A stretch of 43,044 nt of DNA from a virus. The position numbers were made by a program, and so were the translations under genes. Below, piece after piece: positions 5,361 to 40,021 of the stretch. Every line of letters begins with the position of its first letter. Position 1 is the first letter of the stretch. The notes under the pieces were generated by a model. That model was not told the DNA's origin and made no database searches. It saw nothing but the letters and a program-made list of their open reading frames with translations. The stretch lies in IMG/VR virus record IMGVR_UViG_3300029400_000005; one strand, given 5' to 3'.

Positions 5361-6178
5361 CGGTTCACCTCCGTGAGGTCAGAAGCGGACATCCAGCCGA
5401 ATACCACCCCGGAAAGATCCTGCACGCAATACGGATGCGGGTTTGTGCGGGATACGATGCGCCGTACCTGCACCTGCTGGCCGCTGAGCGTGCCGGCAGG
5501 TGTTGGTGCAGTGCTGGTGCTGTAATATTTCCCGTTTGCCTTACGCTGGGCACCCACATAGAGTTTGCTGCTTTGGATGCTGCGTGCTGGAGTAAGGATC
5601 ACTTTTACAGCACTGACAGTAGACGTTGCGACAGCAGCGGCAGAAAGCGCCCGCGTGACAGTGTTCAGCGCAGAGGATGCCGTAGTGGCTGCAGGCGAGA
5701 AGTTTCCGCTGCTGCCCTGCAGAACAGCCTTCTGCGGTGAAAAGTCCTTGTATTCAGTAATGGTCAGGTCAAAGTAAAAGTCGCCGGTCTCGCCGCCGCG
5801 CTCCTCGGTCTTGAAACTGGTAACAAGGCACTCAAAACCCATGCCGCCACCCAGAAACGGGGTGCCGTTCTCATAATAGCGCACCGGCGTATAGACGATG
5901 GGCCTTTTCTGATCCATTGCGCTCTTGAAAAACGTAATGTACACCGATGGCGGTAAAAACACGGCCGCGCTCATCCATGGGAGCCTGCGTCCGGGAAACA
6001 GACCGGAGATCGTTACCTTGCGCAGCTTTGGCGTGCGCGGCTGCATGACAGGGCCAAGGCCAAGCACATTATACTCGCCATTGTCGGATTCTTTGGTCTC
6101 CGGAAGCTTTTCCGGGTTGATGGGCAGGGACAGCACGGTGCTGTCCCGTGAAAAATAAATGCGGTAAAGGCTCGGCAT
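5357..6178 (-). CDS. Tail protein in the XkdP position (no LysM motif recognised)
   Basis: 273 aa, immediately downstream of the tape measure gene with a 4-nt overlap to the next gene. Confidence 0.55.
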   Translation of the reverse strand: MPSLYRIYFSRDSTVLSLPINPEKLPETKESDNGEYNVLGLGPVMQPRTPKLRKVTISGLFPGRRLPWMSAAVFLPPSVYITFFKSAMDQKRPIVYTPVRYYENGTPFLGGGMGFECLVTSFKTEERGGETGDFYFDLTITEYKDFSPQKAVLQGSSGNFSPAATTASSALNTVTRALSAAAVATSTVSAVKVILTPARSIQSSKLYVGAQRKANGKYYSTSTAPTPAGTLSGQQVQVRRIVSRTNPHPYCVQDLSGVVFGWMSASDLTEVNR

Positions 6179-12216: not shown

Positions 12217-12699
12217 TCAGATCACATAACTGCCCGCAAGCCCGATGAACCGGGCGCGGTTGGCCAGCATCTGGCCGTAAGTGGTAGCATTCAGGTCGCC
12301 CCAGTCCTCAGTGCCTGCGGTCAGGGCGGAGGTGTCGTAGGTCACAGAACTGTCGCCCAGTGTGGCGGATTTCACCACGCCCACCAGTGCACCGGAAGCT
12401 GCAGCCTGCGCAGGCGTTGCGCTGCTTTCAGCAAAGGTGCGCAGCTGCAGGGTCACGTAATGTGCCACATACAGCCCCACGGCGTAGTGCCAGCTGTACA
12501 GCCATTTGTCCGGCTGTACGCTGACATTGGCCATGCGCACGATCTCATTCAGCAGAGCATCCGGCAGGTGACACTTGCCGTCGGCATTGCAGAACTGCGG
12601 ATATTCTTCCTTGAACTGCTCAGCGGTGTAATTTCCGACGCTGCCGCCGAGGTTCGCCGCCTGCTGGCGGACTCCACCAAACTGTGCACCGTAGATCAT
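12217..12699 (-). CDS. DUF4054 head-tail connector protein
   Basis: YTAEQFKEEYPQFCN...LYVAHYVTLQL pattern. Confidence 0.65.
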   Translation of the reverse strand: MIYGAQFGGVRQQAANLGGSVGNYTAEQFKEEYPQFCNADGKCHLPDALLNEIVRMANVSVQPDKWLYSWHYAVGLYVAHYVTLQLRTFAESSATPAQAAASGALVGVVKSATLGDSSVTYDTSALTAGTEDWGDLNATTYGQMLANRARFIGLAGSYVI

Positions 12700-14585: not shown

Positions 14586-15575
14586 TCAAGCCTCCTTATG
14601 CTTGTGCGGGTTGAATGCGTCATACGCGGCCTGCGATTCTTCACAGACTGCTTCGTAGCTGGTGCGGCCGGAACGGTGGGCAGCCTGTGCTGCGCTGTCC
14701 TGTGCGGCCTTGGTGATGCCTGCCAGCAGGCCGTCCACGCCGTCATCCTTGCCGGGGTCAGCGTCGGCGGGCGGCTGTACAGGCTCCTGTGCCTTCTGCG
14801 ACAGCGCCTTTACCAGCGTGGTCACGGCGTTCAGGATAGCATCCAGCTGGGCATCAATACTGTTGCCTGCGGGCTTTTCTGCCGGTGCAGGCGGGACACT
14901 GTCCTCTGCGGGGGCAGTTTCGGCCACAGGGGGCTGTGCGTCTTTTGCGGGTTCAGCTTCCGGCGCAGATGCGGGTGCGGCTTCCGGCGCGGCAGTCACA
15001 ACAGCGGCGGGGTTCTTTTCGGATTCGTTCATTGCAGTTCCTTTCTCCGCCGGTGCGGCGGCACTGTCCTGAATGGCAACCAGATGCCCTGCGCGCCCTC
15101 TGGGCACGATCGCAACATGGTTTCCTCGGATATTAGTCTGGCGGTATCCCGTGCCATCCGGCGTGTAGCAGCACCGGTAGCCGCAGGACACCTCCCGCGT
15201 CACGCCGTTTTCCACATCAGAGATCAGGCCGGGATCCTTCAGGTGAAGGTCAGCGACAAGATAATCGCCCTCCCGGTGAACATTCTCTGCGTGGCCCTTG
15301 GCGTAAAGGGCGTGATTTTCCGGCATCAGGCGTTCAGGAGGATGATTCTGGGTTACATCCTTACCCTCGAAACTGGCAACTGCTGCCGGGTCGAACACAT
15401 CTTCAGGGCGGCGCTGCACCTGCACAAGGCGGTCAGGATCGCCGTCAAGGCCCAGTTCCCCGGCAAAGTATTCCTGCTGGCCGATGCGCGCAATGGGCAC
15501 GTCATGGCAGATGAGGAAGCCCTCCGGGGTCTTGGTCATGTGTTCGCTGATTTTACTGCCGTAATAGGCAATCAA
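14586..15575 (-). CDS. DUF2213 prohead protease/scaffold-like protein
   Basis: TTG start, MIAYYGSKISEHMTKTPEGFLICHDVPIARIGQQEY, with an Ala/Pro/Glu-rich low-complexity C-terminal half. Confidence 0.7.
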   Translation of the reverse strand: MIAYYGSKISEHMTKTPEGFLICHDVPIARIGQQEYFAGELGLDGDPDRLVQVQRRPEDVFDPAAVASFEGKDVTQNHPPERLMPENHALYAKGHAENVHREGDYLVADLHLKDPGLISDVENGVTREVSCGYRCCYTPDGTGYRQTNIRGNHVAIVPRGRAGHLVAIQDSAAAPAEKGTAMNESEKNPAAVVTAAPEAAPASAPEAEPAKDAQPPVAETAPAEDSVPPAPAEKPAGNSIDAQLDAILNAVTTLVKALSQKAQEPVQPPADADPGKDDGVDGLLAGITKAAQDSAAQAAHRSGRTSYEAVCEESQAAYDAFNPHKHKEA

Positions 15576-15601
15576 GGGGCATCACCTCCGAAAAATGGGT
15601 A

Positions 15602-15633
15602 TAAAAAAACACGGTGCTGTCTGCATCGTGTTT
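15602..15633 (-). terminator. Intrinsic terminator after the HNH gene
   Basis: 11-bp hairpin (aaacacggtgc/gcatcgtgttt) followed on the minus strand by U7. Confidence 0.55.
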
Positions 15634-15650
15634 TAGGGAAACATAAGAAA

Positions 15651-16343
15651 TTATTTGCGACGGTATTCTCCGAAATAAGTTGTTTCAGCTTGTTTTCTTG
15701 CATTGACCGCTTCTTCAAGAGTATCAAACATTCCGAGACTTACGTGTTTTTGGTTTACATAAATATGTGCTCTCCAGCGGTTCCCGTAGCGACAAACTCC
15801 TGCAACACCGCTCTCTGTACGGGTAAGCTCATGATTCCAAGAGTTTTGTTGCGCTGTTACGAATCGGAGATTGCTTGCTTTATTATTAAGACGGTTTCCA
15901 TCGATATGGTCACGGCATTTTTCTTTCGGGCAGTTTGGAAATAAAAGCACATGACATAATATTAATTTTCCATCTTTCCAAGTGGCAGCATATCCGCAAT
16001 GATAACGCCAGCAATGGTGTTGAGCAATCTTCTCCCAATTGGATAAATCCACTTCCATCCATTTGTCAGAATTTGAAAGCTTGACCCGAACAACATCTCC
16101 ATCGATAGTAAAAATATTCTGCTTTCGACTTCGAATTCCAATATTGCTTCTGTTGCAACCGCAACTTTTGGTTTTTCCATTGCGAAGGTAACAACCACGA
16201 ACAGAAACGATATTACCACAATCGCATACACAAGAATACATAATTACCGTATCGCCATTAGGATTTATGTGGTCAGGATTTCGGGCTAAGACGGTGAGTT
16301 TTCCAAATCGCTGACCAGTTAAATCAGTATGTTTTCTTCCCAT
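15651..16343 (-). CDS. HNH homing endonuclease with C-terminal AP2 DNA-binding domain
   Basis: LTGQRFGKLTVL...SCGC; CRDHIDGNRLNNKASNLRFVTAQQN; GVCRYGNRWRAHIYVNQKHVSLGMFDTLEEAVNARK. The sequence is clearly AT-richer than its neighbours. Confidence 0.8.
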   Translation of the reverse strand: MGRKHTDLTGQRFGKLTVLARNPDHINPNGDTVIMYSCVCDCGNIVSVRGCYLRNGKTKSCGCNRSNIGIRSRKQNIFTIDGDVVRVKLSNSDKWMEVDLSNWEKIAQHHCWRYHCGYAATWKDGKLILCHVLLFPNCPKEKCRDHIDGNRLNNKASNLRFVTAQQNSWNHELTRTESGVAGVCRYGNRWRAHIYVNQKHVSLGMFDTLEEAVNARKQAETTYFGEYRRK

Positions 16344-16564
16344 CAGCGAGCACCGCCTTTCCGACGGGCACGTTCCTCGCGCACTCCACTGATGCGTCCA
16401 GCCATGAAAATATCAGCAAGGAAAGTGTAAAATTGAGCGGCATCGCTTTTCAAAGGTCGGGCACAATACATATCAGCTATATCCTTAGCCCATGCCAGCT
16501 CTTGTGTAGTGTGGGCCGCACGATACTTCACAGCCTCGCTCGGAGTGCAGAAAATTGCATTCAT
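16343..16564 (-). CDS. Hypothetical protein (73 aa)
   Basis: AAGAGG RBS, and an ATGA overlap with the HNH gene start. Confidence 0.5.
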   Translation of the reverse strand: MNAIFCTPSEAVKYRAAHTTQELAWAKDIADMYCARPLKSDAAQFYTFLADIFMAGRISGVREERARRKGGAR

Positions 16565-16584
16565 AATTTTTGCCTCTTATTCTC

Positions 16585-16613
16585 TTGTAAGAGGTTACCC
16601 GATTTGATATAAT
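16585..16613 (+). promoter_or_regulatory. Orphan plus-strand promoter (TTGTAA-17-TGaTATAAT, extended -10)
   Basis: The -35 is at 16585..16590, TG at 16605..16606 and TATAAT at 16608..16613. It points antisense to the RHH gene. Confidence 0.45.
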
Positions 16614-16684
16614 AGATTTATCAAAGGGAAACCTCTGATGTCTTATAACGCTTTGCCCAAGATTTCCAGTCGCCGGGCAGGGCG

Positions 16685-16861
16685 TTATTCTTTTTTCAGA
16701 CCTTCATAGACTAGCTTTATACCTTGGCGAATCACGTCCGCTTTGGTCATTCCTGTTTCTTCACAGCAGACTTCAAGCATCTGTACATCGGTGTCAGACA
16801 TACGGATTCGTGTTTCGTGTGTTTTTGGCTCAGTTGTCGGTCTTCCGATTCTAGGCGACAT
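16685..16861 (-). CDS. Ribbon-helix-helix (CopG/Arc-like) protein
   Basis: The internal ATG at 16861 (MSPRIGRPTTEPKTHETRIRMSDTDVQMLEVCCEETGMTKADVIRQGIKL) has GAGGTG 5 nt upstream. Confidence 0.6.
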   Translation of the reverse strand: MSPRIGRPTTEPKTHETRIRMSDTDVQMLEVCCEETGMTKADVIRQGIKLVYEGLKKE

Positions 16862-16917
16862 CTTATCACCTCGCTTTTGTGTCACCATAATCATGATAAC
16901 ATGCGGTGACACAAAAG

Positions 16918-32578: not shown

Positions 32579-33001
32579 TCATCCCTTGCAGCTCGTCGGT
32601 GTTGGCGCACCGGCGGGCTTTTTTCGTATAGTGCGTACCGGCGGCAGGCTGTCCACCTTGCTGCGGTCGATACGTTCCCGCGCAAATGTGTACTTGTAAG
32701 TTCGATGGCTGCCGCTGAGCCCATGGCTGACGGCAGACGCAAAGCTGTTCGCGCTCTTGTAGCCCAGCCGCCGGGCACACATCTCAGACGTGCCGGATGC
32801 CAGTAGATCGCCGGTCTTTGCGTCCCAGACGGTGTGCCACATGACGCGGGCAGGGTTTTCATTACGCGCCCTGTAATCCCTGCAATATTGGTTGTGGTGC
32901 TCTCTGCGGCAGGAAGCGCAAAAGCGCAGGTTGCCAGCAACATTTTCCATCACCTTGCCGCAGTCCAAACAAACGCGGGTAAAGTGCTTTCCTTTATTCA
33001 T
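32579..33001 (-). CDS. Hypothetical zinc-ribbon protein
   Basis: 140 aa, CLDCGK...FCASCRREH. Confidence 0.5.
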   Translation of the reverse strand: MNKGKHFTRVCLDCGKVMENVAGNLRFCASCRREHHNQYCRDYRARNENPARVMWHTVWDAKTGDLLASGTSEMCARRLGYKSANSFASAVSHGLSGSHRTYKYTFARERIDRSKVDSLPPVRTIRKKPAGAPTPTSCKG

Positions 33002-33009
33002 GGGTGGTG

Positions 33010-33270
33010 TCAGCCCGCCTTCCTGCCGCTCTTCACGGTGTTGCGGGGCTGCTGATGCACCTTGCGGCGGCGTTTCTCACGTGCTTCGGCGGCAAAGCCC
33101 AGCCGCATGAAGAAGATCGCCAGCAGGATCAGCACCATGGCCGTGATGAACGCGCCGTCCGAGACGGTGCCCAGTGTCTGGGCAGTGCCCTCAACGCCTA
33201 TGCCGTACAGCAGGCCTACCACAAAGCAGGCCATTGCCAGCCAGTACCATACGCCGGATTTGATTCTCAT
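33010..33270 (-). CDS. Small membrane protein (two predicted TM helices)
   Basis: 86 aa with hydrophobic runs WYWLAMACFVVGLLYGIGV and FITAMVLILLAIFFM. Confidence 0.5.
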   Translation of the reverse strand: MRIKSGVWYWLAMACFVVGLLYGIGVEGTAQTLGTVSDGAFITAMVLILLAIFFMRLGFAAEAREKRRRKVHQQPRNTVKSGRKAG

Positions 33271-33533
33271 GCGGTTTCATCCTCCTTGCCCACTTCCGGG
33301 AAGAAAAGCTCCCCGATCTCGTCCTGCCGGATGTCCAACAGTTCACAAATTGCTGCGATCTCTTTACTTGTCCACGGCTGGTGCCCGTTCATCCGGGCGC
33401 TCATAGTGTACCGGCCAATGCCGCTATGTTCAGCGACTTCCTGATCGCGGTAGCCGCAGCTGTGGAACCGGCCCCGCAGCTTCCAGTATGGGATCTGCTT
33501 GAAAGTGCCGCGAATAGTTGATGTGTTCAACAT
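33267..33533 (-). CDS. DUF739-like HTH protein
   Basis: ATG at 33533 with GGAGG 6 nt upstream. Carries ...DQEVAEHSGIGRYTMSARMNGHQPWTSKEIAAICELLDI. Confidence 0.55.
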   Translation of the reverse strand: MLNTSTIRGTFKQIPYWKLRGRFHSCGYRDQEVAEHSGIGRYTMSARMNGHQPWTSKEIAAICELLDIRQDEIGELFFPEVGKEDETA

Positions 33534-33534
33534 T

Positions 33535-34212
33535 TTATTCCTCCTTCTTTTTGGCGGGCAGCCCATCCAGCAGGCTGTCCATCAGGGCAGCGTAGAACGG
33601 GTAGCCTTTGGCGACGATGGTCAGGCTGTCAATGGCGCTGGTGAGGTAGCTCTGGGAGCCGCGCACCACGTTCTCCATGGTGCGCACCGTGTCGCAATGC
33701 TGGCCGTAAATGGCCTTGAACTCACCGCACAGGGCCTTGACCTGCATATACTTGGCCTTGCTGTCCTCGCGGTTCTTGCGGCACTCATCCAGAAAAGCGG
33801 TGTTCTCGTCCAGTTTCTTCCGGGCTTCGATCACCCGGTCGATGGCGCTCTGGATGTTGGCGTCCTGCACGGCCTGCTGCTCTTTGTGCTGCGCGGCCAG
33901 CTGCTTCTCCATCTGGTTGAAGGCCTCGATGTACTTGAGCTTCCACTGCACGGCTTCCTTGCCCGTGAAGCCCATGGCCAGCAGGGAAAAGCCGTCACGG
34001 TTCATCAGGTACATGGGGTACTTCTGGTGGTTCTGCGGGTGGGTGTACTCAGACTTGAAGAACATGGGGGTCTGTCCATTTTTGGACACCCCTTCTTCGA
34101 GAGCTTTGATGTCTCTCAAAACATGGTTGTGTTCCTTGCCAAAGCGCTTGGCAACGTCCCGGCTGGATGCCACCGGTTCGCCGTTCTGGGTGGATAAGAT
34201 GATGTCGTTCAT
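33535..34212 (-). CDS. Rha-family phage regulatory protein (antirepressor-like)
   Basis: ATG at 34212, MNDIILSTQNGEPVASSRDVAKRFGKEHNHVLRDIKAL...MNRDGFSLLAMGFTGKEAVQWKLKYIEAFNQME. Confidence 0.85.
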   Translation of the reverse strand: MNDIILSTQNGEPVASSRDVAKRFGKEHNHVLRDIKALEEGVSKNGQTPMFFKSEYTHPQNHQKYPMYLMNRDGFSLLAMGFTGKEAVQWKLKYIEAFNQMEKQLAAQHKEQQAVQDANIQSAIDRVIEARKKLDENTAFLDECRKNREDSKAKYMQVKALCGEFKAIYGQHCDTVRTMENVVRGSQSYLTSAIDSLTIVAKGYPFYAALMDSLLDGLPAKKKEE

Positions 34213-34229
34213 GGTGAATATGTACCTCC

Positions 34230-34258
34230 TTGTGGGTGGCTCCCTTCTGCGGTAGAAT
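34230..34258 (+). promoter_or_regulatory. Candidate promoter of moron A (TTGTGG-17-TAGAAT)
   Basis: The -35 is at 34230..34235 and the -10 at 34253..34258. The 9-bp inverted repeat CCCTTCTGC/GCAGAAGGG (34242..34250 and 34262..34270) brackets the -10. Confidence 0.4.
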
Positions 34259-34280
34259 AGGGCAGAAGGGAGGTGATAAA

Positions 34281-35255
34281 ATGCAAAATTTTTACGAGTT
34301 GAGCTCTGCAGCTCAGACGGCAGCATACCAGCTGTCAGAACTCAGCAATTATGTGTCCGAAGCAGCGAAAATGGCGGATTCTGTTCGCATGGTGAGCAAC
34401 CAGATGAAATCGATTTACCAAACCGCAGAATGGAACAACATGGCGTACCGCTTAGCGAAAGATGCCAGATTATGTGTGCCAGAGTATCAACTATCCAATC
34501 TCGCCAAGAATCTGGCTGGTCAGGCCAGAGCAGATCTCAATTTCACCAATCAGATTTCGGCGCTCTACGGATCGGCAATGGAAAGTCCCGCTTTCCGGTT
34601 ATCGACAGAAATGCTGAATTCCAATGTGCTAAATCTCACCACCGCACTCCGAACAAGCAACATTACAAATCTTTACTCAAATGCTGCGGCTTTTGCGGAT
34701 CAGTTAGACTCGATATGGAGCGAAAGTACTTACAGCGAAAAAGAATCCGAAACCGTGCCGCTGGCAAGTACTCAAGCTGTTCTGGATGAAGTCGAACCAC
34801 TTCTACCTACAGAGGCGGTTGAAACTATCAACGCCAAAATCGCCGAAGTAAAAACTCCGGATAATGCAATCCCCCAAAAAGACTGGGTTGGAATTATCAG
34901 CATCATCGTTACAATTCTTCTGTTTTTGGCAGGTCAGGCATTGTCCAGCGAACATGACAAAAAGGAAGAATCTTCATGGTCTGCAACGGCAGAATATCAA
35001 CAGGAAATGCTCGAAATACAGCGAGAGGAAGCAGAAAGGTCAGAAAACTTCAGACAGCGCACGGAGGAGCATTTCAAAATCGTTGAGGATACGAATGAGC
35101 GAATCGCCGAGGCTTTGGAGATGCTCGCCAACCAGAGCGTTGAATTGGATGATCGAGGTCAAAGTGTCCTCGATTCGGATGATTCTCAAGATGATGCAGA
35201 GGATCAAGATTCCATACAGGCCGCTCAGCAGGAACAAGCCGATGCTGAGGATTGA
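34281..35255 (+). CDS. Moron A: single-pass membrane protein with an acidic coiled-coil C-terminus (324 aa)
   Basis: ATG at 34281 with GGGAGGTG upstream. The TM helix is WVGIISIIVTILLFLAGQAL. No family was recognised. Confidence 0.75.
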   Translation: MQNFYELSSAAQTAAYQLSELSNYVSEAAKMADSVRMVSNQMKSIYQTAEWNNMAYRLAKDARLCVPEYQLSNLAKNLAGQARADLNFTNQISALYGSAMESPAFRLSTEMLNSNVLNLTTALRTSNITNLYSNAAAFADQLDSIWSESTYSEKESETVPLASTQAVLDEVEPLLPTEAVETINAKIAEVKTPDNAIPQKDWVGIISIIVTILLFLAGQALSSEHDKKEESSWSATAEYQQEMLEIQREEAERSENFRQRTEEHFKIVEDTNERIAEALEMLANQSVELDDRGQSVLDSDDSQDDAEDQDSIQAAQQEQADAED

Positions 35256-35345
35256 CCTGCTCCGTTTAAGCTCCTGAACTTCCTTTTCTATCTTCACCCA
35301 GCGTTCCTCTTCCACAGGTTCGCTGGGCTTTTTGCTGTTGTTCAT
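35040..35345 (-). CDS. Doubtful minus-strand ORF (only the first ~30 codons are plausible)
   Basis: GGAGG RBS plus ATG at 35345. The remainder is antisense to the acidic tail of moron A and may be a shadow ORF. Confidence 0.25.
   Translation of the reverse strand: MNNSKKPSEPVEEERWVKIEKEVQELKRSRSILSIGLFLLSGLYGILILCIILRIIRIEDTLTSIIQFNALVGEHLQSLGDSLIRILNDFEMLLRALSEVF
35297..35342 (+). terminator. Intrinsic terminator of moron A
   Basis: CCCAGCG/CGCTGGG stem followed by CTTTTTGCTGTTGTT. Confidence 0.5.
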
Positions 35346-35361
35346 GTGGATTTGTACCTCC

Positions 35362-35390
35362 TTGTATTCACTTCACTTTCGCTGTAAAAT
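35362..35390 (+). promoter_or_regulatory. Candidate promoter of moron B (TTGTAT-17-TAAAAT)
   Basis: The -35 is at 35362..35367 and the -10 at 35385..35390. Confidence 0.4.
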
Positions 35391-35419
35391 AAAAAGACGG
35401 AAAGGAGGTGAATGGAAAA

Positions 35420-36013
35420 ATGATTTTTGAAAATTTTTTAAGAATGCATGGTCTGAATATGCAAATTGAGCGAGATGGTGAAATTATTGCAACCGTTCCA
35501 GGTTTGCCAAACCGAGAAACGGCAACGAACCGTCAGTACGTTGGATTTCGCCCAAAAACCGATATTAAAATAGACGATGTTATTATCACTCCGGCCAATG
35601 AACGGCTTTATGTAACGGAAACGCAGGCATCGTTCTTCCAAAAGCAGCAGGAAGAAATAAAAGCGTTCTATATGACCGAAGTCGAGAAAAAGCGAAAAGA
35701 AACCGAACAGCGTCAGAGTAATATTTATAATATCGGTACAGCTTACGGTTCTGTAATTGGAACAGCCAATACAGCGACCATCAACTACCAGACGAATTTT
35801 CAGGAACTGCGGGAAAGGGCAGAAGCTGAAGATGCACCGGACAAAGAGCAAGTCCAGAAGTTAGTTGATCTTGTTGAGATGATCGTAAATGACCAGATTC
35901 CTCCGCAGAAGGGATTGTTGTCCAAGTTTTCCGAAACGATGGAACGTCACTCGTGGATTACAAGTGCTGTTGCATCTGCGCTTGTATCGTGGTTGACACA
36001 ACTTCCGCACTGA
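35420..36013 (+). CDS. Moron B: hypothetical protein (197 aa)
   Basis: ATG at 35420, 11 nt after GGAGG. MIFENFLRMHGLNMQIERDGE...NIGTAYGSVIGTANTATINYQ...HSWITSAVASALVSWL. No family was recognised. Confidence 0.7.
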   Translation: MIFENFLRMHGLNMQIERDGEIIATVPGLPNRETATNRQYVGFRPKTDIKIDDVIITPANERLYVTETQASFFQKQQEEIKAFYMTEVEKKRKETEQRQSNIYNIGTAYGSVIGTANTATINYQTNFQELRERAEAEDAPDKEQVQKLVDLVEMIVNDQIPPQKGLLSKFSETMERHSWITSAVASALVSWLTQLPH

Positions 36014-36197
36014 TCTCGATGGTCAAGTTTAACAATGCTTTTCCATTGCTGGACTGAACCAACGAATAATCCTTCACGTTCTGGATAACCGTTCCGTCTA
36101 TCTGGCAGCTAAAACGATTGTCCAAGTGCGACAGCTGAATCTCTTGCGCCCCGCGCTTCTCTTCCTTAGGAGCGTGGGGCCTTTTGCTGTTGCTCAT
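35958..36197 (-). CDS. Small early protein (79 aa)
   Basis: ATG at 36197 with GGAGG 8 nt upstream, MSNSKRPHAPKEEKRGAQEIQLSHLDNRFSCQIDGTVIQNVKDYSLVQSSNGKALLNLTIEISAE. Its 3' end overlaps moron B by 56 nt. Confidence 0.45.
   Translation of the reverse strand: MSNSKRPHAPKEEKRGAQEIQLSHLDNRFSCQIDGTVIQNVKDYSLVQSSNGKALLNLTIEISAEVVSTTIQAQMQQHL
36148..36192 (+). terminator. Intrinsic terminator of moron B
   Basis: GCCCCGCGC/GCGTGGGGC (9 bp, one G-U) followed by CTTTTGCTGTTG. Confidence 0.5.
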
Positions 36198-36249
36198 CTT
36201 CTTCACCTCCTTTGGATGGCGGGCAAGTATGTATTTTTCACTATGGATG

Positions 36250-36258
36250 TGCTATCAT
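36250..36258 (+). promoter_or_regulatory. Extended -10 element TGcTATCAT upstream of moron C
   Basis: Read directly; the -35 is poor. Confidence 0.35.
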
Positions 36259-36292
36259 AAAGACACCCCAAAACGGAAGGAGGTGAAAAAAC

Positions 36293-36667
36293 ATGAGCTT
36301 GTCATTGACTAAAATGGCTGTTCTTACTGGATATGCAAATACCATTTCCCTCAAAGAATTTGCAAAGAACCGTTTATTTCTGGTGACACCTGCTGGCATG
36401 ATCAGCGGTATCCCCGTATTTGATGAGGAAAATAGCAATCCGAACATTGCCGTTGCGCAGACAGTTAACTCCTCAGCTCTCAAGGCCGTTTCCAAAGCTG
36501 CTTCTGCTGAAGAAGAAAGTCCGCAGACGGGTGAAAGCTGTGAGTTTATTCTGCTAAAGGATGCTCGTCTGGAAACCACAAGTCCCGTTGTGAATTTCCC
36601 TGTTCTGACTGTCTTTTGTGACCAGATCATTGCTGTGACCCTTGGCACTGATCTCACCAATGGCTAA
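36293..36667 (+). CDS. Moron C: hypothetical protein (124 aa)
   Basis: GGAAGGAGGTG RBS, MSLSLTKMAVLTGYANTISLKEFAKNRLFLVTPAGMISGIPVF... No family was recognised. Confidence 0.7.
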   Translation: MSLSLTKMAVLTGYANTISLKEFAKNRLFLVTPAGMISGIPVFDEENSNPNIAVAQTVNSSALKAVSKAASAEEESPQTGESCEFILLKDARLETTSPVVNFPVLTVFCDQIIAVTLGTDLTNG

Positions 36668-36748
36668 CACCTCGCGATTTTGCCGCCCTTGTACCGCTAA
36701 TACAAGGGCGGCAATTTCTTTGGGTTCACCAATGATTTTGATTTTCAT
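36554..36748 (-). CDS. Doubtful small ORF after the cro-like gene
   Basis: GGAGG 8 nt upstream of the ATG at 36748 (MKIKIIGEPKEIAALVLAVQGRQ...). However, it runs through the moron C terminator hairpin and antisense to moron C. Confidence 0.3.
   Translation of the reverse strand: MKIKIIGEPKEIAALVLAVQGRQNREVLAIGEISAKGHSNDLVTKDSQNREIHNGTCGFQTSIL
36680..36721 (+). terminator. Intrinsic terminator of moron C
   Basis: Perfect 14-bp stem TTGCCGCCCTTGTA/TACAAGGGCGGCAA with a 7-nt loop, followed by TTTCTTT. Confidence 0.7.
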
Positions 36749-36780
36749 GTTTTTCACCTCCTTTTGGATGAATTAAATAA

Positions 36781-36795
36781 TCTACTTTAAGTAGA
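36781..36795. promoter_or_regulatory. Distal operator, perfect palindrome TCTACTTtAAGTAGA
   Basis: Overlaps the stop codon of the cro-like gene. Confidence 0.55.
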
Positions 36796-36987
36796 TGCAC
36801 TGGCGAAAAAAATTTGGTCGATGGGAATGCCGACGACCTCACTGATTCTTTTCGCGGTGGCGACGGTAGCGTCTTCGGGCGATTGCTCGATTTTGCGGTA
36901 TGTATCGCGCGAAATTCCGAGCTTTTCTGCCATTTCACGCTGTGTGAAACCGGCGTACTGGCGGGCTTGTTTAACGGTGAATCCCAA
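36787..36987 (-). CDS. Cro-like XRE-family HTH protein
   Basis: GFTVKQARQYAGFTQREMAEKLGISRDTYRKIEQ. The likely start is TTG at 36987, 7 nt after GGAGG (the track GTG is at 36993). Confidence 0.8.
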   Translation of the reverse strand: MGFTVKQARQYAGFTQREMAEKLGISRDTYRKIEQSPEDATVATAKRISEVVGIPIDQIFFASAST

Positions 36988-37019
36988 GTTCACACCTCCT
37001 TTCGTCTGGGTTCGAGAAT

Positions 37020-37048
37020 ACTATACTCCACTTTTAGTAGAATGTCAA
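37020..37048 (-). promoter_or_regulatory. Early lytic promoter (PR-like) TTGACA-17-TATAGT
   Basis: The -35 is at 37043..37048 and the -10 at 37020..37025 on the minus strand. Confidence 0.7.
37027..37041. promoter_or_regulatory. Operator copy TCCACTTTTAGTAGA (13/15 match to the distal palindrome)
   Basis: Lies inside the spacer of the PR-like promoter. Confidence 0.55.
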
Positions 37049-37062
37049 GAACTTAAAGTAGA
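37048..37062. promoter_or_regulatory. Operator copy AGAACTTAAAGTAGA (12/15)
   Basis: Abuts the -35 of the PR-like promoter, 21 bp centre-to-centre from the previous copy. Confidence 0.45.
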
Positions 37063-37079
37063 AAATTTTAAAATAAATG

Positions 37080-37108
37080 TTGACATAGCTCTACTTTTGG
37101 TGTAATCT
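37080..37108 (+). promoter_or_regulatory. Candidate repressor promoter (PRM-like), TTGACA with a weak -10
   Basis: TTGACA at 37080..37085. The -10 is either TAATCT (17-nt spacer) or TGTAAT (15-nt spacer). Confidence 0.4.
37090..37104. promoter_or_regulatory. Operator copy TCTACTTTTGGTGTA (11/15)
   Basis: Lies inside the spacer of the PRM-like promoter, 42 bp from the previous copy. Confidence 0.4.
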
Positions 37109-37130
37109 CTACATATAAGGAGTGATTCAA

Positions 37131-37760
37131 TTGAGCATCGCTGAAAATATTAAAAAAATCCGATTGGAACACGAGCTATCACAGGCTGACCTTGGCAAGA
37201 TTGCAGGTGTCAGCGACAAAGCGGTGTCCACTTGGGAACTCGGGATAAAAATACCTCGCATGGGCGCAGTGGAGAAAATGGCAAATTACTTTGGTATCCC
37301 CAAAAGTGCAATTTTGGATGATGCCCAGCCCGCTCCTGCATCCCGTCCCATCCCCCCGGGCTTTGAGCCGATGCCGAAGATGAAGAAGATCCCGCTGATC
37401 GGCAGCATTGCCTGTGGGGAACCCATCACGGCAGAGCAGAACATTGAAAAAATGGTGGACGTGCCGGAGAACATCCGGTGCGATTTTTCCCTGACCTGCC
37501 ACGGTGACAGCATGGTGGATGCCGGCATTCACGATAAAGACGTGGTGTATATCCGCATCCAGCCGGAGGTGGAGAACGGCGAGATCGCAGCGGTGCGCAT
37601 TGATGGTGAAGCCACCCTCAAGCGGGTATATTACAACCCCGGCACGCTGACCCTGATGCCCGCAAACCCGGCTTATGCGCCCATGATCTATACCGGCTCC
37701 CAGCTGGAAGAGGTGCACATTGAGGGCAAGGCCGTAGGCTGGACGCACTGGGTGGGGTGA
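37131..37760 (+). CDS. CI-type repressor: XRE HTH plus S24 (LexA-like) self-cleaving peptidase domain
   Basis: LSQADLGKIAGVSDKAVSTWELG; ...HGDSMVDAGI...ATLKRVY (Ser/Lys dyad). I prefer TTG at 37131 (AAGGAG 8 nt upstream) to the track GTG at 37122. Confidence 0.85.
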   Translation: MSIAENIKKIRLEHELSQADLGKIAGVSDKAVSTWELGIKIPRMGAVEKMANYFGIPKSAILDDAQPAPASRPIPPGFEPMPKMKKIPLIGSIACGEPITAEQNIEKMVDVPENIRCDFSLTCHGDSMVDAGIHDKDVVYIRIQPEVENGEIAAVRIDGEATLKRVYYNPGTLTLMPANPAYAPMIYTGSQLEEVHIEGKAVGWTHWVG

Positions 37761-37807
37761 AAAGCGATATTTCACTAAAATTTGCGAAAAATAACCAATA
37801 ATTGATT

Positions 37808-37819
37808 ATTTTGCAAAAT
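37808..37819. promoter_or_regulatory. Perfect 12-bp palindrome ATTTTGCAAAAT upstream of the NYN promoter
   Basis: Read directly; it ends 3 nt before the -35. Confidence 0.6.
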
Positions 37820-37822
37820 GAG

Positions 37823-37851
37823 TTGACAAAATCAACAAAAACGCATATAAT
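37823..37851 (+). promoter_or_regulatory. Consensus sigma-70 promoter TTGACA-17-TATAAT
   Basis: The -35 is at 37823..37828, the spacer is 17 nt, and the -10 is at 37846..37851. Confidence 0.75.
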
Positions 37852-37857
37852 GGGGGT

Positions 37858-37969
37858 GCATCTTTACAGGATGCCATCAGAAACATGATGTTTCAAAATG
37901 CTTAACAGACCCCTGGTAGTAAGCCCCCCGCCGATATGGGGAAGGCTGAATCCTGGGGTCTTATTTTTT
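37858..37969 (+). promoter_or_regulatory. Structured 5' leader: two abutting mini-hairpins plus a long terminator hairpin with U-tract
   Basis: GCATC-N7-GATGC at 37858..37874 and CATCA-N6-TGATG at 37875..37890. AGACCCCTGG...CCTGGGGTCT (37907..37961) has an inner GCC-CCCC/GGGG-GGC stem and is followed by TTATTTTTT. Confidence 0.6.
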
Positions 37970-37990
37970 ACCAAAGGAAGTGTAACACAA

Positions 37991-38671
37991 ATGGCAAAGA
38001 CAGCAATTCTGGTTGATGGCGGCTTTTACCGCAAACGTGCAGCCCACTTGTGGGGCAAAAAGACCGCCGAGGAACGTGCGAAGGAACTGAATGCTTACTG
38101 TATGGCTCACCTTCACGATAAGGACGGCAACGAGGAGCGTCAGCTGTACCGCATTTTCTATTACGATTGTGAGCCAGTAGGCCGCCGCAGCGTGTACCAC
38201 CCGCTGACAAAGAAGAATGTGGATTTGGACAAATCTGATACTTATACATGGACGCAGACCTTTTTGGAAGAATTGCGGAAGCGCAGAAAATTTGCACTCC
38301 GCCTTGGTACATTGTCCAACCAAATAGCCTACAATCTGCGCCCGGATGTGACCCGCAAGCTTCTTGCTGGCACAAAGCAGCTGGAAGAGCTGACCGAGGA
38401 CGATTTCGTTTTTGTGGCTCAGCAAAAGGGCGTGGACATGCGTGTTGGTGTTGATATTGCGTCACTCGCGTATAAGAAGCAGGTTGATCAGATCATTCTG
38501 ATTGCCGGTGACAGTGATTTTGTCCCCGCTGCCAAGCTTGCCCGACGGGAGGGCGTGGACTTTATCCTTGACCCGATGTGGGCTGATATCAAGCCTGATC
38601 TGTTTGAGCATATTGACGGCCTGAAGAGCCAGTGGCGTAAGCGCAGCGAAAAAGCTGAAGCGAAGAAGTAA
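37991..38671 (+). CDS. NYN-domain (LabA/DUF88-type PIN-like) putative ribonuclease
   Basis: 226 aa from the ATG at 37991 (AAAGGAAG RBS): MAKTAILVDGGFYRKR...QQKGVDMRVGVDIASLA...IILIAGDSDFVPAAKLARREGV. Confidence 0.75.
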   Translation: MAKTAILVDGGFYRKRAAHLWGKKTAEERAKELNAYCMAHLHDKDGNEERQLYRIFYYDCEPVGRRSVYHPLTKKNVDLDKSDTYTWTQTFLEELRKRRKFALRLGTLSNQIAYNLRPDVTRKLLAGTKQLEELTEDDFVFVAQQKGVDMRVGVDIASLAYKKQVDQIILIAGDSDFVPAAKLARREGVDFILDPMWADIKPDLFEHIDGLKSQWRKRSEKAEAKK

Positions 38672-38735: not shown

Positions 38736-38819
38736 AAAAACAAAAAACGCCCCCGGTGCTACCAACACCGAGAGCGTTTGCAGAGTGGCTTGCCCCAGAG
38801 GGTACAATCCAACATGAAC
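38736..38819 (-). ncRNA. Predicted small RNA (~85 nt) between the NYN gene and int
   Basis: It is bounded by a strong promoter and a strand-specific terminator. The terminator is a 13-bp stem at 38746..38778, fully paired only in the minus-strand RNA via two G-U pairs, followed by U6GU5. Confidence 0.5.
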
Positions 38820-38825
38820 ACTTGT

Positions 38826-38854
38826 ATTGTACCACCTCCGGGCAGGCTTGTCAA
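38826..38854 (-). promoter_or_regulatory. Strong minus-strand promoter TTGACA-17-(TGg)TACAAT
   Basis: The -35 is at 38849..38854 and the -10 at 38826..38831, with an extended -10 TG. Confidence 0.65.
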
Positions 38855-38884
38855 AGTGTACCCTTGTGTATGGAGGTGGATTTT

Positions 38885-40021
38885 ATGAAAAAGAGAACCA
38901 ACACGGCATTTTGGGTCGAGAAGGAAAGCCGCTGGTGCATCGCGGTGCAGAAGAACGGTACCCGCAAGCGCTTTTACAGCAGCACGCCGGGCCGCACCGG
39001 CCAGCGGGAAGCAAACGCAAAAGCGGATGCATGGCTCGACGACAGCATCCGGGACGGCAAGAAGAAGGTAGCTGCCCTCTATGCCCAGTGGGTAGAAGAA
39101 CTGAAGCTCACCTGCGGCACATCCTATGTTGAGCAGTGCAAGAAATACGGAGATTACTATATTCTGCCTGTCTGTGGGGACATCCGCATTGACGAGCTGA
39201 CCGAAGGCGATCTGCAAAAAGCCATCAATCTGTCTTTCAAAAAGCGATGCCTTAAAAAGGAGCGTCAGCGTAGGTCAAGCGACAAGCCTTTGAGCCGCAA
39301 GACCCTTATGACGATCCGCTCAACGGAGATCAGCTTTTTGAAATGGTGCCGCCGGAACAGGTACAGTACGATGTTCCCTGAGCTGTCTATCCCGAAGAAT
39401 GCCCGCATGGGGAAGAAAAAGATTTTACAGCCGACCGCTTTGAAAGTCCTGTTTGATGTGGACACCCGCCTTTACTATGGCAAGCTGGTCTTTGACGAGT
39501 ATATCTATGCCTACCGGTTTGCAGTTGCTACAGGTGTACGCCCCGGTGAACTTGTGGGGCTCTGGTATGGTGACGTCAAAGGGAACACCGTCAATCTGCG
39601 CCGCAGCATCAACCGGATGGATGAAGAAACCACCGGAAAGAATGAAAACGCTATTCGTTCATTTGACATGGGCGAGGAAGCCCATGAGGCCTACGAAGCG
39701 CAGGTAGCCTTGCTGAAGGCTTCCGATATCCCGCTGAACTATACCACCCCTTTGTTCCAGATCCCGAACCAGAGAGCTTTATTCAAGCGCTGGAAGAAGT
39801 ACCAGCGTGACAATGGCATTGAGCCTCAGGTCACGCTGTATGAGATGCGGCACACTTTCGTCAGCATTGAATCCGGCGTATTGACCGACAGCCAGCTGAA
39901 GATGCTGGTCGGTCACAGCAAGAACATGGATACTGCCGGAGTGTATCGGCACGAGCTTGATGGTCAGAGGGAAGATCTTGCTGCCGCTACCACCGCGGCA
40001 TTCAAAAAGGCACAGGCCTGA
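38885..40021 (+). CDS. int: Tyrosine recombinase / phage integrase
   Basis: ATG at 38885 with GGAGGTG upstream. Carries ...ATGVRPGELVGL...MRHTFVSI...LVGHSKNMDTAGVYRH. Confidence 0.9.
   Translation: MKKRTNTAFWVEKESRWCIAVQKNGTRKRFYSSTPGRTGQREANAKADAWLDDSIRDGKKKVAALYAQWVEELKLTCGTSYVEQCKKYGDYYILPVCGDIRIDELTEGDLQKAINLSFKKRCLKKERQRRSSDKPLSRKTLMTIRSTEISFLKWCRRNRYSTMFPELSIPKNARMGKKKILQPTALKVLFDVDTRLYYGKLVFDEYIYAYRFAVATGVRPGELVGLWYGDVKGNTVNLRRSINRMDEETTGKNENAIRSFDMGEEAHEAYEAQVALLKASDIPLNYTTPLFQIPNQRALFKRWKKYQRDNGIEPQVTLYEMRHTFVSIESGVLTDSQLKMLVGHSKNMDTAGVYRHELDGQREDLAAATTAAFKKAQA

Follow-up and report, generated by a model that had tools for sequence, protein, structure and literature searches.

The concept of the moron was reportedly defined by Juhala, Hendrix and colleagues for phages HK97 and HK022; lambdoid examples are lambda bor, lambda lom and HK97 gp15. 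Prophage defence genes lying by the immunity region are known from lambda (rexAB), P22 (sieA/sieB), the central variable region of the Cluster N mycobacteriophages and BstA, the last of which has a built-in self-immunity element, aba. The type I toxin-antitoxin loci txpA/RatA and bsrG/SR4 of Bacillus subtilis prophages consist of convergent units with overlapping 3' ends, one of which encodes a small hydrophobic protein. Integron arrays are built of exchangeable single-gene cassettes separated by short conserved imperfect-palindrome junctions. In Pseudomonas phage Fc02, exclusion phenotypes have been reported for both overlapping partners, olg1/olg2 and gene 10, and the repressor-strand genes are transcribed in the lysogen (PMC9936078).

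How does the locus described here compare? The window, a 43,044-nt stretch of viral DNA (IMG/VR record IMGVR_UViG_3300029400_000005), comes from a temperate phage of Faecalibacterium, a relative of phages Aster and Lugh. Between its cro-like and Rha-family genes lie three cargo genes, A, B and C, each met by a small convergent ORF (m3, m2 and m1, respectively). Like the lambdoid morons, these are self-contained promoter/terminator units placed between two operon genes, deviant in composition and absent from close relatives, and like lambda bor they are antisense to the surrounding operon. Unlike the lambdoid morons, several units are arrayed at one slot beside the genetic switch, each is paired with a convergent operon-strand ORF whose SD and start region doubles as the terminator, and the same two junction modules surround many cargo genes. 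As with rexAB, sieA/sieB, the Cluster N region and BstA, the accessory genes sit next to the repressor, share its orientation and vary between relatives; in a search with known defence-family profiles, no cargo protein matched any profile or showed homology to these four. The likeness to Fc02 consists in repressor-strand genes by the switch, overlapped antisense by an early lytic-strand gene downstream of a cro/ner-type gene (PMC9936078). The two loci are unrelated in sequence, Fc02 is Mu-like, infects a Gram-negative host and has one fixed locus in place of a swappable array, and its phenotypes were measured whereas the present cassettes are known from sequence alone. Convergent prophage units with overlapping 3' ends, together with the hydrophobic segment of m3, also recall txpA/RatA and bsrG/SR4, but in the present cassettes each partner encodes a protein, the longer being a conserved one of 197-324 aa rather than a small RNA. 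Integron arrays are likened here by array layout alone, exchangeable cassettes between short palindromic junctions; unlike integron cassettes, ours each come with a promoter and a terminator of their own, meet at terminator/SD modules and are presumably exchanged by homologous recombination.

Organization of the cro-Rha interval

The preliminary description of this DNA placed three plus-strand ORFs of 324, 197 and 124 aa between the minus-strand cro-like and Rha genes, and both coordinates and profile matches agree. The features of the interval are as follows.

33535..34212, minus: Rha-family gene (Phage_pRha, 2.5e-32)
34204..34233, minus: left junction repeat, one copy of a ~30-nt direct repeat, with the SD and ATG of Rha
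34230..34258, plus: candidate promoter of A, TTGTGG-17-TAGAAT, from direct reading
34240..34272, no strand assigned: 11-bp inverted repeat/hairpin CTCCCTTCTGC-N11-GCAGAAGGGAG covering the -10 hexamer and SD of A (-21.6 kcal/mol, z = -3.8)
34281..35255, plus: cargo gene A, 324 aa, an ORF with homologues and coding-type substitutions
35040..35345, minus: m3, 101 aa, SD AAGGAGGT, an ORF kept in diverged lineages
35297..35345, plus: intrinsic terminator of A (hairpin 35297-35327 and U-rich tail), an m2/m3-type junction module
35362..35390, plus: candidate promoter of B, TTGTAT-17-TAAAAT, from direct reading
35420..36013, plus: cargo gene B, 197 aa, an ORF with homologues (phrog_21028, 4.9e-17)
35958..36197, minus: m2, 79 aa, small and beta-rich, with a strong SD, on the lytic strand and converging on B
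36148..36197, plus: intrinsic terminator of B (hairpin 36148-36180 and U-rich tail)
36250..36258, plus: candidate extended -10 promoter of C, TGcTATCAT, from direct reading
36293..36667, plus: cargo gene C, 124 aa (phrog_3773, 2.1e-9; 39 homologues)
36554..36748, minus: m1, 64 aa, SD AAAGGAGGTG, the first ORF after cro
36680..36725, plus: intrinsic terminator of C (perfect 14-bp stem 36680-36714 and tail), an m1-type junction module
36787..36993, minus: cro-like HTH gene opening the lytic operon (HTH_3, 3.6e-12)
37020..37048, minus: PR-like lytic promoter TTGACA-17-TATAGT, matching the consensus at 11/12 positions in the promoter scan

A, B and C share the orientation of cI, the NYN-domain gene and int, opposite to that of the lytic operon, in which Rha is the conserved early gene that comes first after the cassette slot. 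The block has a G+C content of 45.7% against 56-59% elsewhere, which bears out the earlier reading of an AT-richer insert, and the two spot counts given for it, 27 and 38, were reproduced exactly. That reading had also treated the block as some 2.5 kb of plain antisense DNA, which is refuted: the minus strand carries three strong-SD ORFs, m1, m2 and m3, overlooked earlier, interleaved with the cargo genes and convergent on them, and at least m2 has the marks of a selected protein gene. In a terminator scan, the minus strand from cro to Rha showed no strong terminator. The promoter scan gave candidate minus-strand promoters inside the antisense of B (35510..35483, 10/12 matches, with TG) and of A (34497..34469, 9/12 matches), and therefore Rha and later genes may not depend on PR read-through alone.

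Cargo genes A, B and C

A, B and C are real, conserved genes, since homologues exist, down to 39-43% identity, and substitutions concentrate at codon position 3. Counts at positions 1/2/3 are 57/37/104 for A (upstream of the m3 overlap), 22/10/84 for B and 25/17/54 for C, and the three cargo proteins are under clear purifying selection. None matched Pfam, PADLOC, NCBIfam or PDB sequences. The only profile matches were to function-unknown PHROGs, for B and C, in keeping with the initial statement that no family could be recognised.

A is a single-pass membrane protein, B a stopper-like beta-barrel joined to a widely shuffled helical module, and C a small soluble protein, whose structure model (pLDDT 46) was unusable. 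Helical in its N-terminal part, A carries a single transmembrane segment (WVGIISIIVTILLFLAGQAL), the conserved motif LSSEHDKKEE and an acidic tail. Of its 13 homologues, those sharing 43-60% identity retain both transmembrane segment and tail.

In B, an N-terminal beta-barrel (residues 1-98) is joined by a conserved NIGTAYGSVIGT linker to a helical C-terminal module, which finishes in an amphipathic helix. We detected 81 homologues, and the family comprises at least 577 clusters at 50% identity. With the B model (pLDDT 78.5), Foldseek returned phage head-tail connector/stopper proteins at E = 2e-4 to 1e-2, and the modelled N-terminal domain weakly resembles head-tail stoppers. The C-terminal module recurs in gp51 of CDMH1 and in proteins with other N-terminal domains. 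In one of these, P0244, it is fused to a Cro/C1-type HTH, so that a regulatory role would fit B as well as defence would. Gp51 of Clostridioides difficile phage CDMH1 (NC_024144), annotated only as hypothetical, is homologous to B in its C-terminal half (27% identity, E = 5e-6) and likewise lies antisense in the early region, flanked by the gene for an HTH regulator and by anti-repressor genes; CDMH1 gp47 and gp51 share with the window the layout of a cargo gene antisense in the early region. Unlike B, gp51 has a winged-helix-like N-terminal domain in place of the beta-barrel, and its convergent neighbour gp50 is not m2-like.

Terminators, promoters and junction modules

Each ORF had originally been credited with an SD-type ribosome-binding site, a promoter and a plus-strand terminator. 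The SDs of A, B and C are confirmed. So are the terminators, which fold at -17.7 (A, z = -4.1), -26.2 (B) and -28.1 kcal/mol (C, z = -5.5), all z-scores being from -4.1 to -5.5, and carry U-rich tails; the consensus scan flags those of B and C, not that of A. The named promoters fared unevenly. Those of A and B match the -35 consensus at only 3/6 positions and are unreported by the scan, whereas an extended -10 motif (TGnTATACT-like) is conserved at equal upstream distance in most diverged B homologues, and the C homologue of L012 has TTGCCC-17-TACAAT with TG at the equivalent position, reported by the scan. The A promoter region is 79-88% conserved ahead of other cargo genes in L031 and L047.

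Read on the opposite strand, each cargo terminator also supplies the SD, ATG and initial codons of the ORF that faces it, and it lies within the first ~18-20 codons of m1, m2 or m3. The complements of the A and B terminators supply the ATG and first codons of m3 and m2, respectively, and that of the C terminator encodes KEIAALVLAVQGRQ of m1. The stems show paired, pairing-preserving changes across loci. The B hairpin is more stable on the plus strand (-26.2 kcal/mol) than on the minus strand (-19.4), where a plus-strand G-U pair becomes an A-C mismatch. The A terminator is a paralogue of the B terminator (repeat D1, 78% identical), and the C-terminator module recurs behind different cargo genes in L047 and phage Aster.

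Comparison of loci shows two conserved types of junction module, m1-type and m2/m3-type, which flank many cargo genes and coincide with presence/absence breakpoints. One or two copies of the module pattern AAGGAGGT-N7-ATGRACAACARCAAAARGCCC occur in 55/225 fetched loci, and the cultured phage Aster has the same modules with other cargo genes. The A cassette is bounded by a ~30-nt direct repeat (D4 aligns 34214-34233 with 35346-35365 at 90% identity). In the B-only locus L044 a single copy (5917-5946) aligns to both window copies, placing the A-cassette breakpoints at this repeat. Across the B cassette (35337-36212), identity is 96-99.7% between phages in which the flanking DNA matches at 70-90% or is unrelated.

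Cassette combinations among relatives

We surveyed loci retrieved with B (80), with A (25) and with C (24), and a separate, unbiased sample taken with Rha. All seven combinations occur (A-only, B-only, C-only, A+B, A+C, B+C and A+B+C), every subset being seen in near-identical prophage backbones. A, B and C are found together in L027, L030, L033, L035, L150, L177, L179 and L186, and their order is kept when they are co-present; diverged homologues occur singly in other phage types. Slots sampled through Rha hold from 0 to at least 3 recognised cassettes, and unrelated cargo in the same slot includes D79, G77m, an A-like 277-aa gene and an Aster orf33-like gene. The slot is empty in L210-L212 (in L210 the Rha ATG lies 22 nt past the cro stop), which makes the A/B/C units dispensable insertions. 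Position and orientation are kept whatever the cargo in Faecalibacterium phages, in Ruminococcus-type elements (L012-L016) and in CDMH1.

The survey shows A, B and C behaving as three independent cassettes, not as one system. The moron reading first offered for them is supported, resting on independent promoter-ORF-terminator units, deviant composition, presence or absence among near-identical prophages and the empty slot.

The opposing open reading frames

What are m1, m2 and m3 for? The cassettes may be paired effector/partner modules, with the cargo protein made in the lysogen harming the phage's own lytic cycle or the host and m2 (for B), m3 (for A) or antisense RNA neutralising it on induction. 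Such self-immunity or toxin-antitoxin-like pairs would refine the explanation that we prefer below; we regard them as possible, though not probable.

The properties of m2 suit such a pairing. It overlaps B by 56 nt, and outside the overlap, in codons 19-61, the substitution counts at positions 1/2/3 are 6/5/19, 13/6/24 and 1/0/6, with no codon-position bias in codons 1-18; on this pattern m2 is a genuine protein gene under purifying selection at the protein level. tblastn found m2 alongside B at every locus where it found m2 and nowhere in loci without B, and behind most B homologues, to as low as ~42% B identity, lies an m2-like ORF, always convergent with B and overlapping it by 29-77 nt. 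From this we infer that m2 is the cognate partner of B.

Also in favour of pairing, m3 retains its ORF, SD, length and C-terminal motif across five diverged lineages, and L031 has m3 without a full A gene. The m3 product has charged residues at its N-terminus, a hydrophobic segment and a helix at its C-terminus; its frame runs antisense to the last 71 codons of A and is codon-aligned with them. Within the overlap, changes at position 1 are about as frequent as at position 3 (26/20/29 and 25/12/23), and m3 and the acidic tail of A probably share dual-coding DNA. Other convergent pairs occupy the slot elsewhere (D79/mD63 and a 111-aa/73-aa pair in L164), and the antisense-overlapping partner gene of Fc02 also gave an exclusion phenotype (PMC9936078).

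The behaviour of m1 argues the other way. It overlaps the last 37 codons of C, and between the window and L012 its N-terminal 24 residues, which correspond to the hairpin, are conserved, but beyond them the C frame and not the m1 frame is conserved; m1 is probably a leader-type ORF rather than a selected protein. L012 has a perfect lytic promoter, TTGACA-17-TATAAT, and m1 is the first ORF downstream of it. Moreover, the Aster ORF behind a junction module is merely the antisense of another cargo gene's transmembrane segment, and A and m3, like C and m1, physically overlap, which by itself forces them to co-occur. Both m1 and m3 are read in the codon-aligned antisense frame, where stop codons are naturally scarce; from codon counts in the window alone, the chance of m3 staying open is estimated at ~0.16.

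Discussion

We consider it probable that the region is a hypervariable accessory-cassette (moron) slot between cro and Rha, in which cassettes are swapped and the cargo is predicted to be expressed in the lysogen. Across the loci compared, a cassette has two parts. The cargo gene, which shares the strand of the repressor and integrase genes, brings an SD, a candidate extended -10 promoter and a one-directional intrinsic terminator of its own; opposite it, a small SD-led lytic-strand ORF converges on the cargo gene and overlaps its 3' end. To judge from the breakpoints, cassettes would be exchanged by recombination between the short conserved junction modules. In the lysogen, PR would be repressed and the cargo promoters active, with the terminators keeping transcripts out of neighbouring units. 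After induction, PR transcripts would cross the hairpins, which lack a U-tract when read that way; m1, m2 and m3 would be translated and antisense RNA would run through the cargo genes. This antisense passage may lower cargo expression while the lytic-strand partners are made.

Could the proteins matter less than the transcription units that carry them? Constitutive plus-strand promoters facing PR might damp leaky lytic transcription and silence the Rha/antirepressor-type gene in the lysogen. Such a regulatory device would account for position and orientation being kept across many phage lineages regardless of cargo, for the L012 cargo gene immediately behind a perfect PR-like promoter, and for the first conserved downstream gene belonging to the Rha/anti-repressor family. 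It is nevertheless improbable, given relatives in which Rha directly follows cro, an occupancy of the slot too variable for a tuned regulatory element, and the purifying selection on cargo proteins, coupled with the size of the B family. It is quite improbable, too, that A, B and C are ordinary early or lytic-cycle genes that happen to sit on the opposite strand: their neighbours are early genes, and PHROGs assigns B and C to phage families, but they are dispensable and variably present, deviate in base composition, each have their own terminator and follow the orientation of cI, the NYN-domain gene and int. The earlier suggestion of a set possibly working together, as one cooperative three-component exclusion or abortive-infection system, draws on the adjacency, constant order and occasional co-occurrence of the genes and is hardly credible, since relatives carry all combinations, other cargo or an empty slot, diverged homologues stand alone in other phage types and each gene has a separate terminator.

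Within the accessory-cassette slot that we favour, the likeliest targets of the cargo proteins would be the host cell or superinfecting phages. Independent gain and loss, together with the pairing of a repressor-strand gene with a convergent lytic-strand ORF, make the A, B and C cassettes good candidates for prophage-encoded phage defence.

Surroundings of the slot

The window is a temperate phage genome that reads mostly on the minus strand, and its closest named kin by DNA similarity are the Faecalibacterium phages Aster (87% over 42% of the query) and FP_Lugh. Three plus-strand cargo genes, A, B and C, occupy the slot between the cro-like gene and the Rha gene, just as the preliminary description had placed them. 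From the integrase leftward, the features of this region are the following.

38756-40021, plus strand: integrase, at the right end of the window
37898-38671, plus strand: NYN-domain gene, at the right end of the window
37122-37760, plus strand: S24/HTH repressor
37048..37020, minus strand: PR-like promoter TTGACA-17-TATAGT, from the promoter scan
36993-36787, minus strand: cro-like HTH gene, divergent from the repressor
36293-36667, plus strand: cargo gene C
35420-36013, plus strand: cargo gene B
35510..35483, minus strand: candidate internal promoter, from the scan
34281-35255, plus strand: cargo gene A
34497..34469, minus strand: candidate internal promoter, from the scan
start at 34212, minus strand: Rha-family gene, with early and replication genes downstream

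No strong minus-strand terminator came up between cro and Rha in the scan. A 13-bp palindrome, CTACTTTAAGTAG, is present in three copies (36782-36794, 37028-37040 and 37049-37061; chance expectation 0.17), which are probably repressor or Cro operators. One copy lies outside the cI-cro intergenic region, at the cro stop codon and just upstream of the small minus-strand ORF m1, where it could have a looping or roadblock role.

The interval between repressor and integrase, which is the classical moron position, is variable too. It encodes the NYN-domain protein in the window (weak PADLOC NYN match, 1.3e-5) and a Fic, Abi_2, zinc-ribbon or DUF4236 protein in relatives (L001, L004 and L098, the last being Aster orf29; L010-L011). 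Also there, downstream of a perfect TTGACA-17-TATAAT promoter (37823-37851), an element of 62 nt (37904-37965) matches TEG147, an Rfam family of cis-regulatory RNA from Staphylococcus aureus, with 37.9 bits (E = 4.8e-5), under the gathering score of 56.1. The NYN-domain gene probably starts after this element, at 37988 (MAKTAILVDGG). A second low-G+C island, at 15500-16900 within the structural gene region (43.5% vs about 57%), contains a 230-aa ORF (15651-16343, minus strand) in which HNH-like CRDHIDGNRLNN and AP2-like GVCRYGNRWRAHIYVNQKHVSLG motifs were recognized by eye; from its sequence, the island looks like a homing-endonuclease insertion.

Cargo genes with their own signals

Are A, B and C genuine genes? 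Database relatives number 13 for A, 81 for B and 39 for C, with lowest identities of 39-43%, and pairwise codon comparisons distribute the substitutions over codon positions 1/2/3 as 57/37/104, 22/10/84 and 25/17/54, respectively. These homologues, together with the third-position excess expected of coding frames, identify all three as genuine genes, and the same evidence rules out that they are antisense shadows of minus-strand genes. A GGAGG-type SD precedes each of them, as had been claimed.

The intrinsic terminator assigned to each gene is borne out by folding: the hairpins of A, B and C reach -17.7, -26.2 and -28.1 kcal/mol (z = -4.1 to -5.5), and a terminator scan picked up two of the three. 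U-rich tails lie 3' of the hairpins on the plus strand only; bidirectional termination was rejected because the U-tract is absent in the minus direction. The promoters fared less evenly. The candidates named for A and B exist, but their -35 hexamers match at only three of six positions and the scan did not report them. An extended -10 of the TGnTATACT type recurs at the same distance upstream of most diverged B homologues. Diverged C homologues likewise have a conserved extended -10, and the scan reported a promoter for one C homologue (L012).

That the block is AT-rich was correct down to the spot counts of 27 and 38, which were reproduced exactly. G+C is 45.7% in the block and 43.9-47.5% in individual cassettes, against 56-59% elsewhere, while GC3 is 0.42-0.47 in the cargo genes and 0.84 in Rha. 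With a terminator each, deviant composition and variable presence, the units qualify as morons at the level of sequence.

The absence of a recognizable family for A, B and C also held, as Pfam, PADLOC and NCBIfam gave no significant match; the same scans of m1 and of the two further small minus-strand ORFs, m2 and m3, returned nothing significant. None of the six proteins matched PADLOC-DB at E <= 0.01, and the sole match up to E 0.1 was that of A to a Cas6 model (E = 0.069); the adjacent NYN-domain protein alone matched a defense model (1.3e-5). Sequence searches of the PDB, run with A itself and with B, C and m2 profiles, yielded nothing below E = 0.04, and an Rfam scan of 33000-38000 matched no family within the block.

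Independent cassettes in one slot

The preliminary description had proposed that A, B and C form a set working together. Among related loci (80 fetched via B, 25 via A and 24 via C), B occurs alone in close relatives (e.g. L019, L044), A alone of the three in L109-L118 and C alone of the three in L125, L126 and L131. Combinations of A and B (L022, L025 and others), A and C (L113, L121), B and C (L052) and all three genes (L027, L030, L033, L035) are found as well. The same slot accommodates unrelated cargo, namely D79 with its partner mD63, G77m, a 277-aa A-like gene and genes like Aster orf33, or is empty, the cro stop then lying 22 nt before the Rha ATG (L210-L212). In an unbiased sample collected through Rha, occupancy ranges from zero to at least three recognized cassettes. 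The occurrence of all subsets, of other cargo and of the empty slot in related backbones argues against a set working together. A single operon was rejected too, since each gene has a terminator and every cassette stands alone elsewhere.

In other phage types, diverged homologues of the three genes are found one at a time, always beside the switch and in the repressor orientation. An A homologue at 43-60% identity adjoins Bro-N-type or other early genes, a B homologue at 48% identity stands alone after cro, and a C homologue at 72% identity follows directly behind a perfect PR-like promoter in Ruminococcus-type elements. Every cassette inspected consists of a convergent pair: a cargo gene on the repressor strand and a small ORF on the lytic strand.

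Convergent minus-strand ORFs

The preliminary description treats the block as antisense DNA that lytic transcription has to cross. Its minus strand carries three strong-SD ORFs that were missed in the first reading.

start at 36748, minus strand: m1, runs into the 3' end of C
start at 36197, minus strand: m2, runs into the 3' end of B
start at 35345, minus strand: m3, runs into the 3' end of A

Their SDs are very strong (AAGGAGGTG) and lie 7-8 nt before the ATG, and the terminators of A, B and C sit within the first ~20 codons of m3, m2 and m1, respectively.

What do these ORFs encode? For m2, substitutions in the non-overlapping codons 19-61 fall on positions 1/2/3 as 6/5/19, 13/6/24 and 1/0/6 in three comparisons, while codons 1-18, which contain the hairpin, have no position bias (6/6/5 and 7/9/6). 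By this contrast, m2 evolves as an RNA or DNA element at its 5' end and as a protein over its body, and the substitution patterns mark it as a real protein gene. Nearly all B homologues examined, down to 42% B identity, face a convergent m2-like ORF (consensus ..IxVKDYKIxSSxxGxTELxL..) that overlaps them by 29-77 nt. No match to m2 was found in any locus lacking B among the 233 loci, all of which had been fetched for other reasons, and tblastn with an m2-like protein against GenBank phages gave no match. The strict pairing suggests that m2 is a cognate partner of B.

The case of m3 is more complex. It shares DNA with the last 71 codons of A, which it reads in the codon-aligned antisense frame. 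This frame is naturally poor in stop codons, and from codon counts we estimate a chance of about 0.16 that m3 stays open in the window; m3 might be a mere shadow of the acidic tail of A. Set against this explanation are five diverged lineages in which the ORF persists with its SD, at 84-101 aa and with a similar C-terminal motif, and one locus (L031) that has a copy of m3 without a full A gene. Changes in the A/m3 overlap are distributed over codon positions as 26/20/29 and 25/12/23, the first position being about equal to the third, and one pair shows higher conservation of the antisense protein than of A. The converse, in which the acidic tail is purely a shadow of m3, was rejected because the tail is conserved in the A frame. 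Taken together, these patterns point to dual coding of the A/m3 overlap, short of proof. In m1, which looks like a leader ORF, conservation is limited to the first 24 residues, which span the hairpin; past them it is the frame of C that is kept.

Junction modules at the cassette borders

At the cassette borders, a terminator and the SD, ATG and first codons of the convergent ORF are carried by the same DNA, which we term a junction module. A direct repeat of 49 nt (78% identical) is made up of the terminators of A and B and the start regions of m3 and m2, and the SD regions flanking each cassette are likewise repeated. In relatives that have only B, the A cassette is absent exactly between the copies of a ~30-nt repeat, which comprises the minus-strand gene's SD and ATG. 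Across phages with unrelated flanks or flanks of 70-90% identity, the B cassette (35337-36212) retains 96-99.7% identity.

Two module types were distinguished. Type 1, SD-ATG-(G/A)ACAACA(A/G)CAAAA(A/G)GCCC-hairpin, encodes M(D/N)NNKKPS and is present once or twice in 55 of the 225 fetched loci. Type 2, SD-ATGAAAAT..hairpin, encodes MKI(K/E)I.G..KEIAALVLAVQ. Both recur with different cargo genes, and the cultured phage Aster has both around its own cargo, orf33 and orf34. Hairpin changes across loci keep pairing while the encoded residues differ. In the B hairpin, one G-U pair of the plus strand corresponds to an A-C mismatch in the complement, which makes the plus-strand fold the stabler one. 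In view of these features, we regard the module mainly as a plus-strand terminator, whose complement has been recruited as a translation start, and infer that it also provides short homology for cassette exchange.

In Aster (L098, PP479941; host HTF-238), a phage that had been obtained following treatment at 40 °C (PMC11792537), the 3' end of orf34 faces a 49-aa minus-strand ORF (12373-12522 in locus coordinates) that the GenBank annotation lacks. It has a perfect junction module, SD CACAAGGAGGTGAACCAC and then MENNKKPS.... As with m2 and m3, gene callers overlook genes in such overlaps.

Proteins encoded by the cassettes

In the structure model of B (pLDDT 78.5), residues 1-98 form an N-terminal beta-barrel with a helix and the C-terminal part has four helices; a conserved NIGTAYGSVIGT stretch between them is poorly modelled. 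Foldseek searches of PDB and BFVD returned mainly phage head-tail connector, stopper and head-closure proteins with weak scores; for the N-terminal domain, the best PDB match has E = 7.6e-3 at a target-normalized TM-score of about 0.5 and the best BFVD match E = 2.2e-4 at 0.45-0.6, both weak. The PDB search found no sequence-level match of B to head-tail connector proteins. The gene lies outside the head-tail morphogenesis module: its place is next to the genetic switch, on the strand of the repressor, and its presence varies between genomes.

B matches phrog_21028 (4.9e-17), a PHROG without assigned function, through its C-terminal half alone (residues 89-189), and this half is homologous to gp51 of the C. 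difficile phage CDMH1. A library-wide profile search places at least 577 clusters in the B family (E <= 1e-3; clusters at 50% identity), with Clostridia as hosts. The C-terminal module is also joined to Cro/C1-type HTH, winged-helix-like or unknown N-terminal domains (shuffled relatives P0244, P0183, P0201, P0255, P0260 and P0261). In P0279 (400 aa), it is instead the N-terminal barrel of B that lies inside a larger protein with another small beta domain. A variable domain on a conserved module is a pattern typical of conflict systems. The architecture of B would suit such a system; the HTH fusion equally allows a regulatory role.

The N-terminal ~220 residues of A form a helical part; the protein also has a single transmembrane segment, the conserved motif LSSEHDKKEE and an acidic tail. 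The PHROGs 'holin' match to the transmembrane segment (E = 0.0075) is weak and was dismissed as meaningless. Frameshifts at or near a C5A5 tract (34872-34881) affect several versions of A in the database (P0003, P0006, P0008, P0010), which run on in a second plus-strand frame that is open for 137 codons through the acidic tail (ORF 34864-35277, plus strand); this could reflect assembly error, pseudogenization or slippage. An 11-bp inverted repeat with an 11-nt spacer (34240-34272; -21.6 kcal/mol as RNA) spans the -10 hexamer and SD of A just upstream of the opposite-strand Rha SD. The surrounding region is conserved before other cargo genes (L031, L047), and the repeat could be a protein-binding site or an RNA element.

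C matches phrog_3773 (2.1e-9), also without assigned function. Its structure model (pLDDT 46) is unusable, and the Sm-like fold guessed from its sequence pattern was dropped as unsupported.

Proposed working and relation to known systems

How might such an array operate? Judging from the sequence, the cargo promoters would be active in the lysogen, with the terminators insulating each unit. On induction, PR transcripts would read through the hairpins, which have no U-tract in that direction, so that m1, m2 and m3 would be translated and the antisense run across the cargo genes would lower cargo expression. The cargo proteins may plausibly act on the host envelope or on superinfecting phages.

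A more far-reaching reading, which we consider improbable as a whole, is a recombinase-free array at the immunity region of two-gene conflict modules with triple-use junctions, B being a new effector family. Each module would comprise a lysogen-expressed effector (A, B, C or others) and a convergent lytic-strand partner that shuts it off on induction via protein, antisense transcription or both. If so, the prophage would stay immune to its own defense. The junction module would serve as effector terminator, partner translation start and portable recombination site, and B would use its head-tail-stopper-like domain to recognize head completion in superinfecting phages or to interfere with it.

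For the antisense-overlap geometry, the closest parallel described is that of Pseudomonas phage Fc02, where an early lytic-strand gene overlaps repressor-strand exclusion genes and also excludes (PMC9936078). Like B, CDMH1 gp51 is antisense in the early region. In this phage (L097), gp47 (6567-6878) and gp51 (4725-5351) lie antisense between Arc-like, anti-repressor and HTH genes, and the interleaved layout is therefore not confined to Faecalibacterium phages. The likeness to type I toxin-antitoxin systems extends only to the convergent geometry with 3' overlap and the hydrophobic segment of m3. No description of a swappable array of convergent two-gene cassettes, of dual-use terminator/start junction modules or of the B and m2 families was found in the literature searched.

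Faecalibacterium is among the most abundant human gut commensals, and to our knowledge almost nothing is known of the role of its prophages for the host. Near-identical prophages that differ only in the cassettes of one slot constitute a natural experiment, offering candidate accessory or defense genes (the A, B/m2, C, D79/mD63, G77m and Aster orf33 and orf34 types) with matched controls. Dual-use DNA at the cassette borders would provide a concrete, testable mechanism for phage mosaicism at short conserved linkers and may also couple the shut-off of accessory genes to induction.
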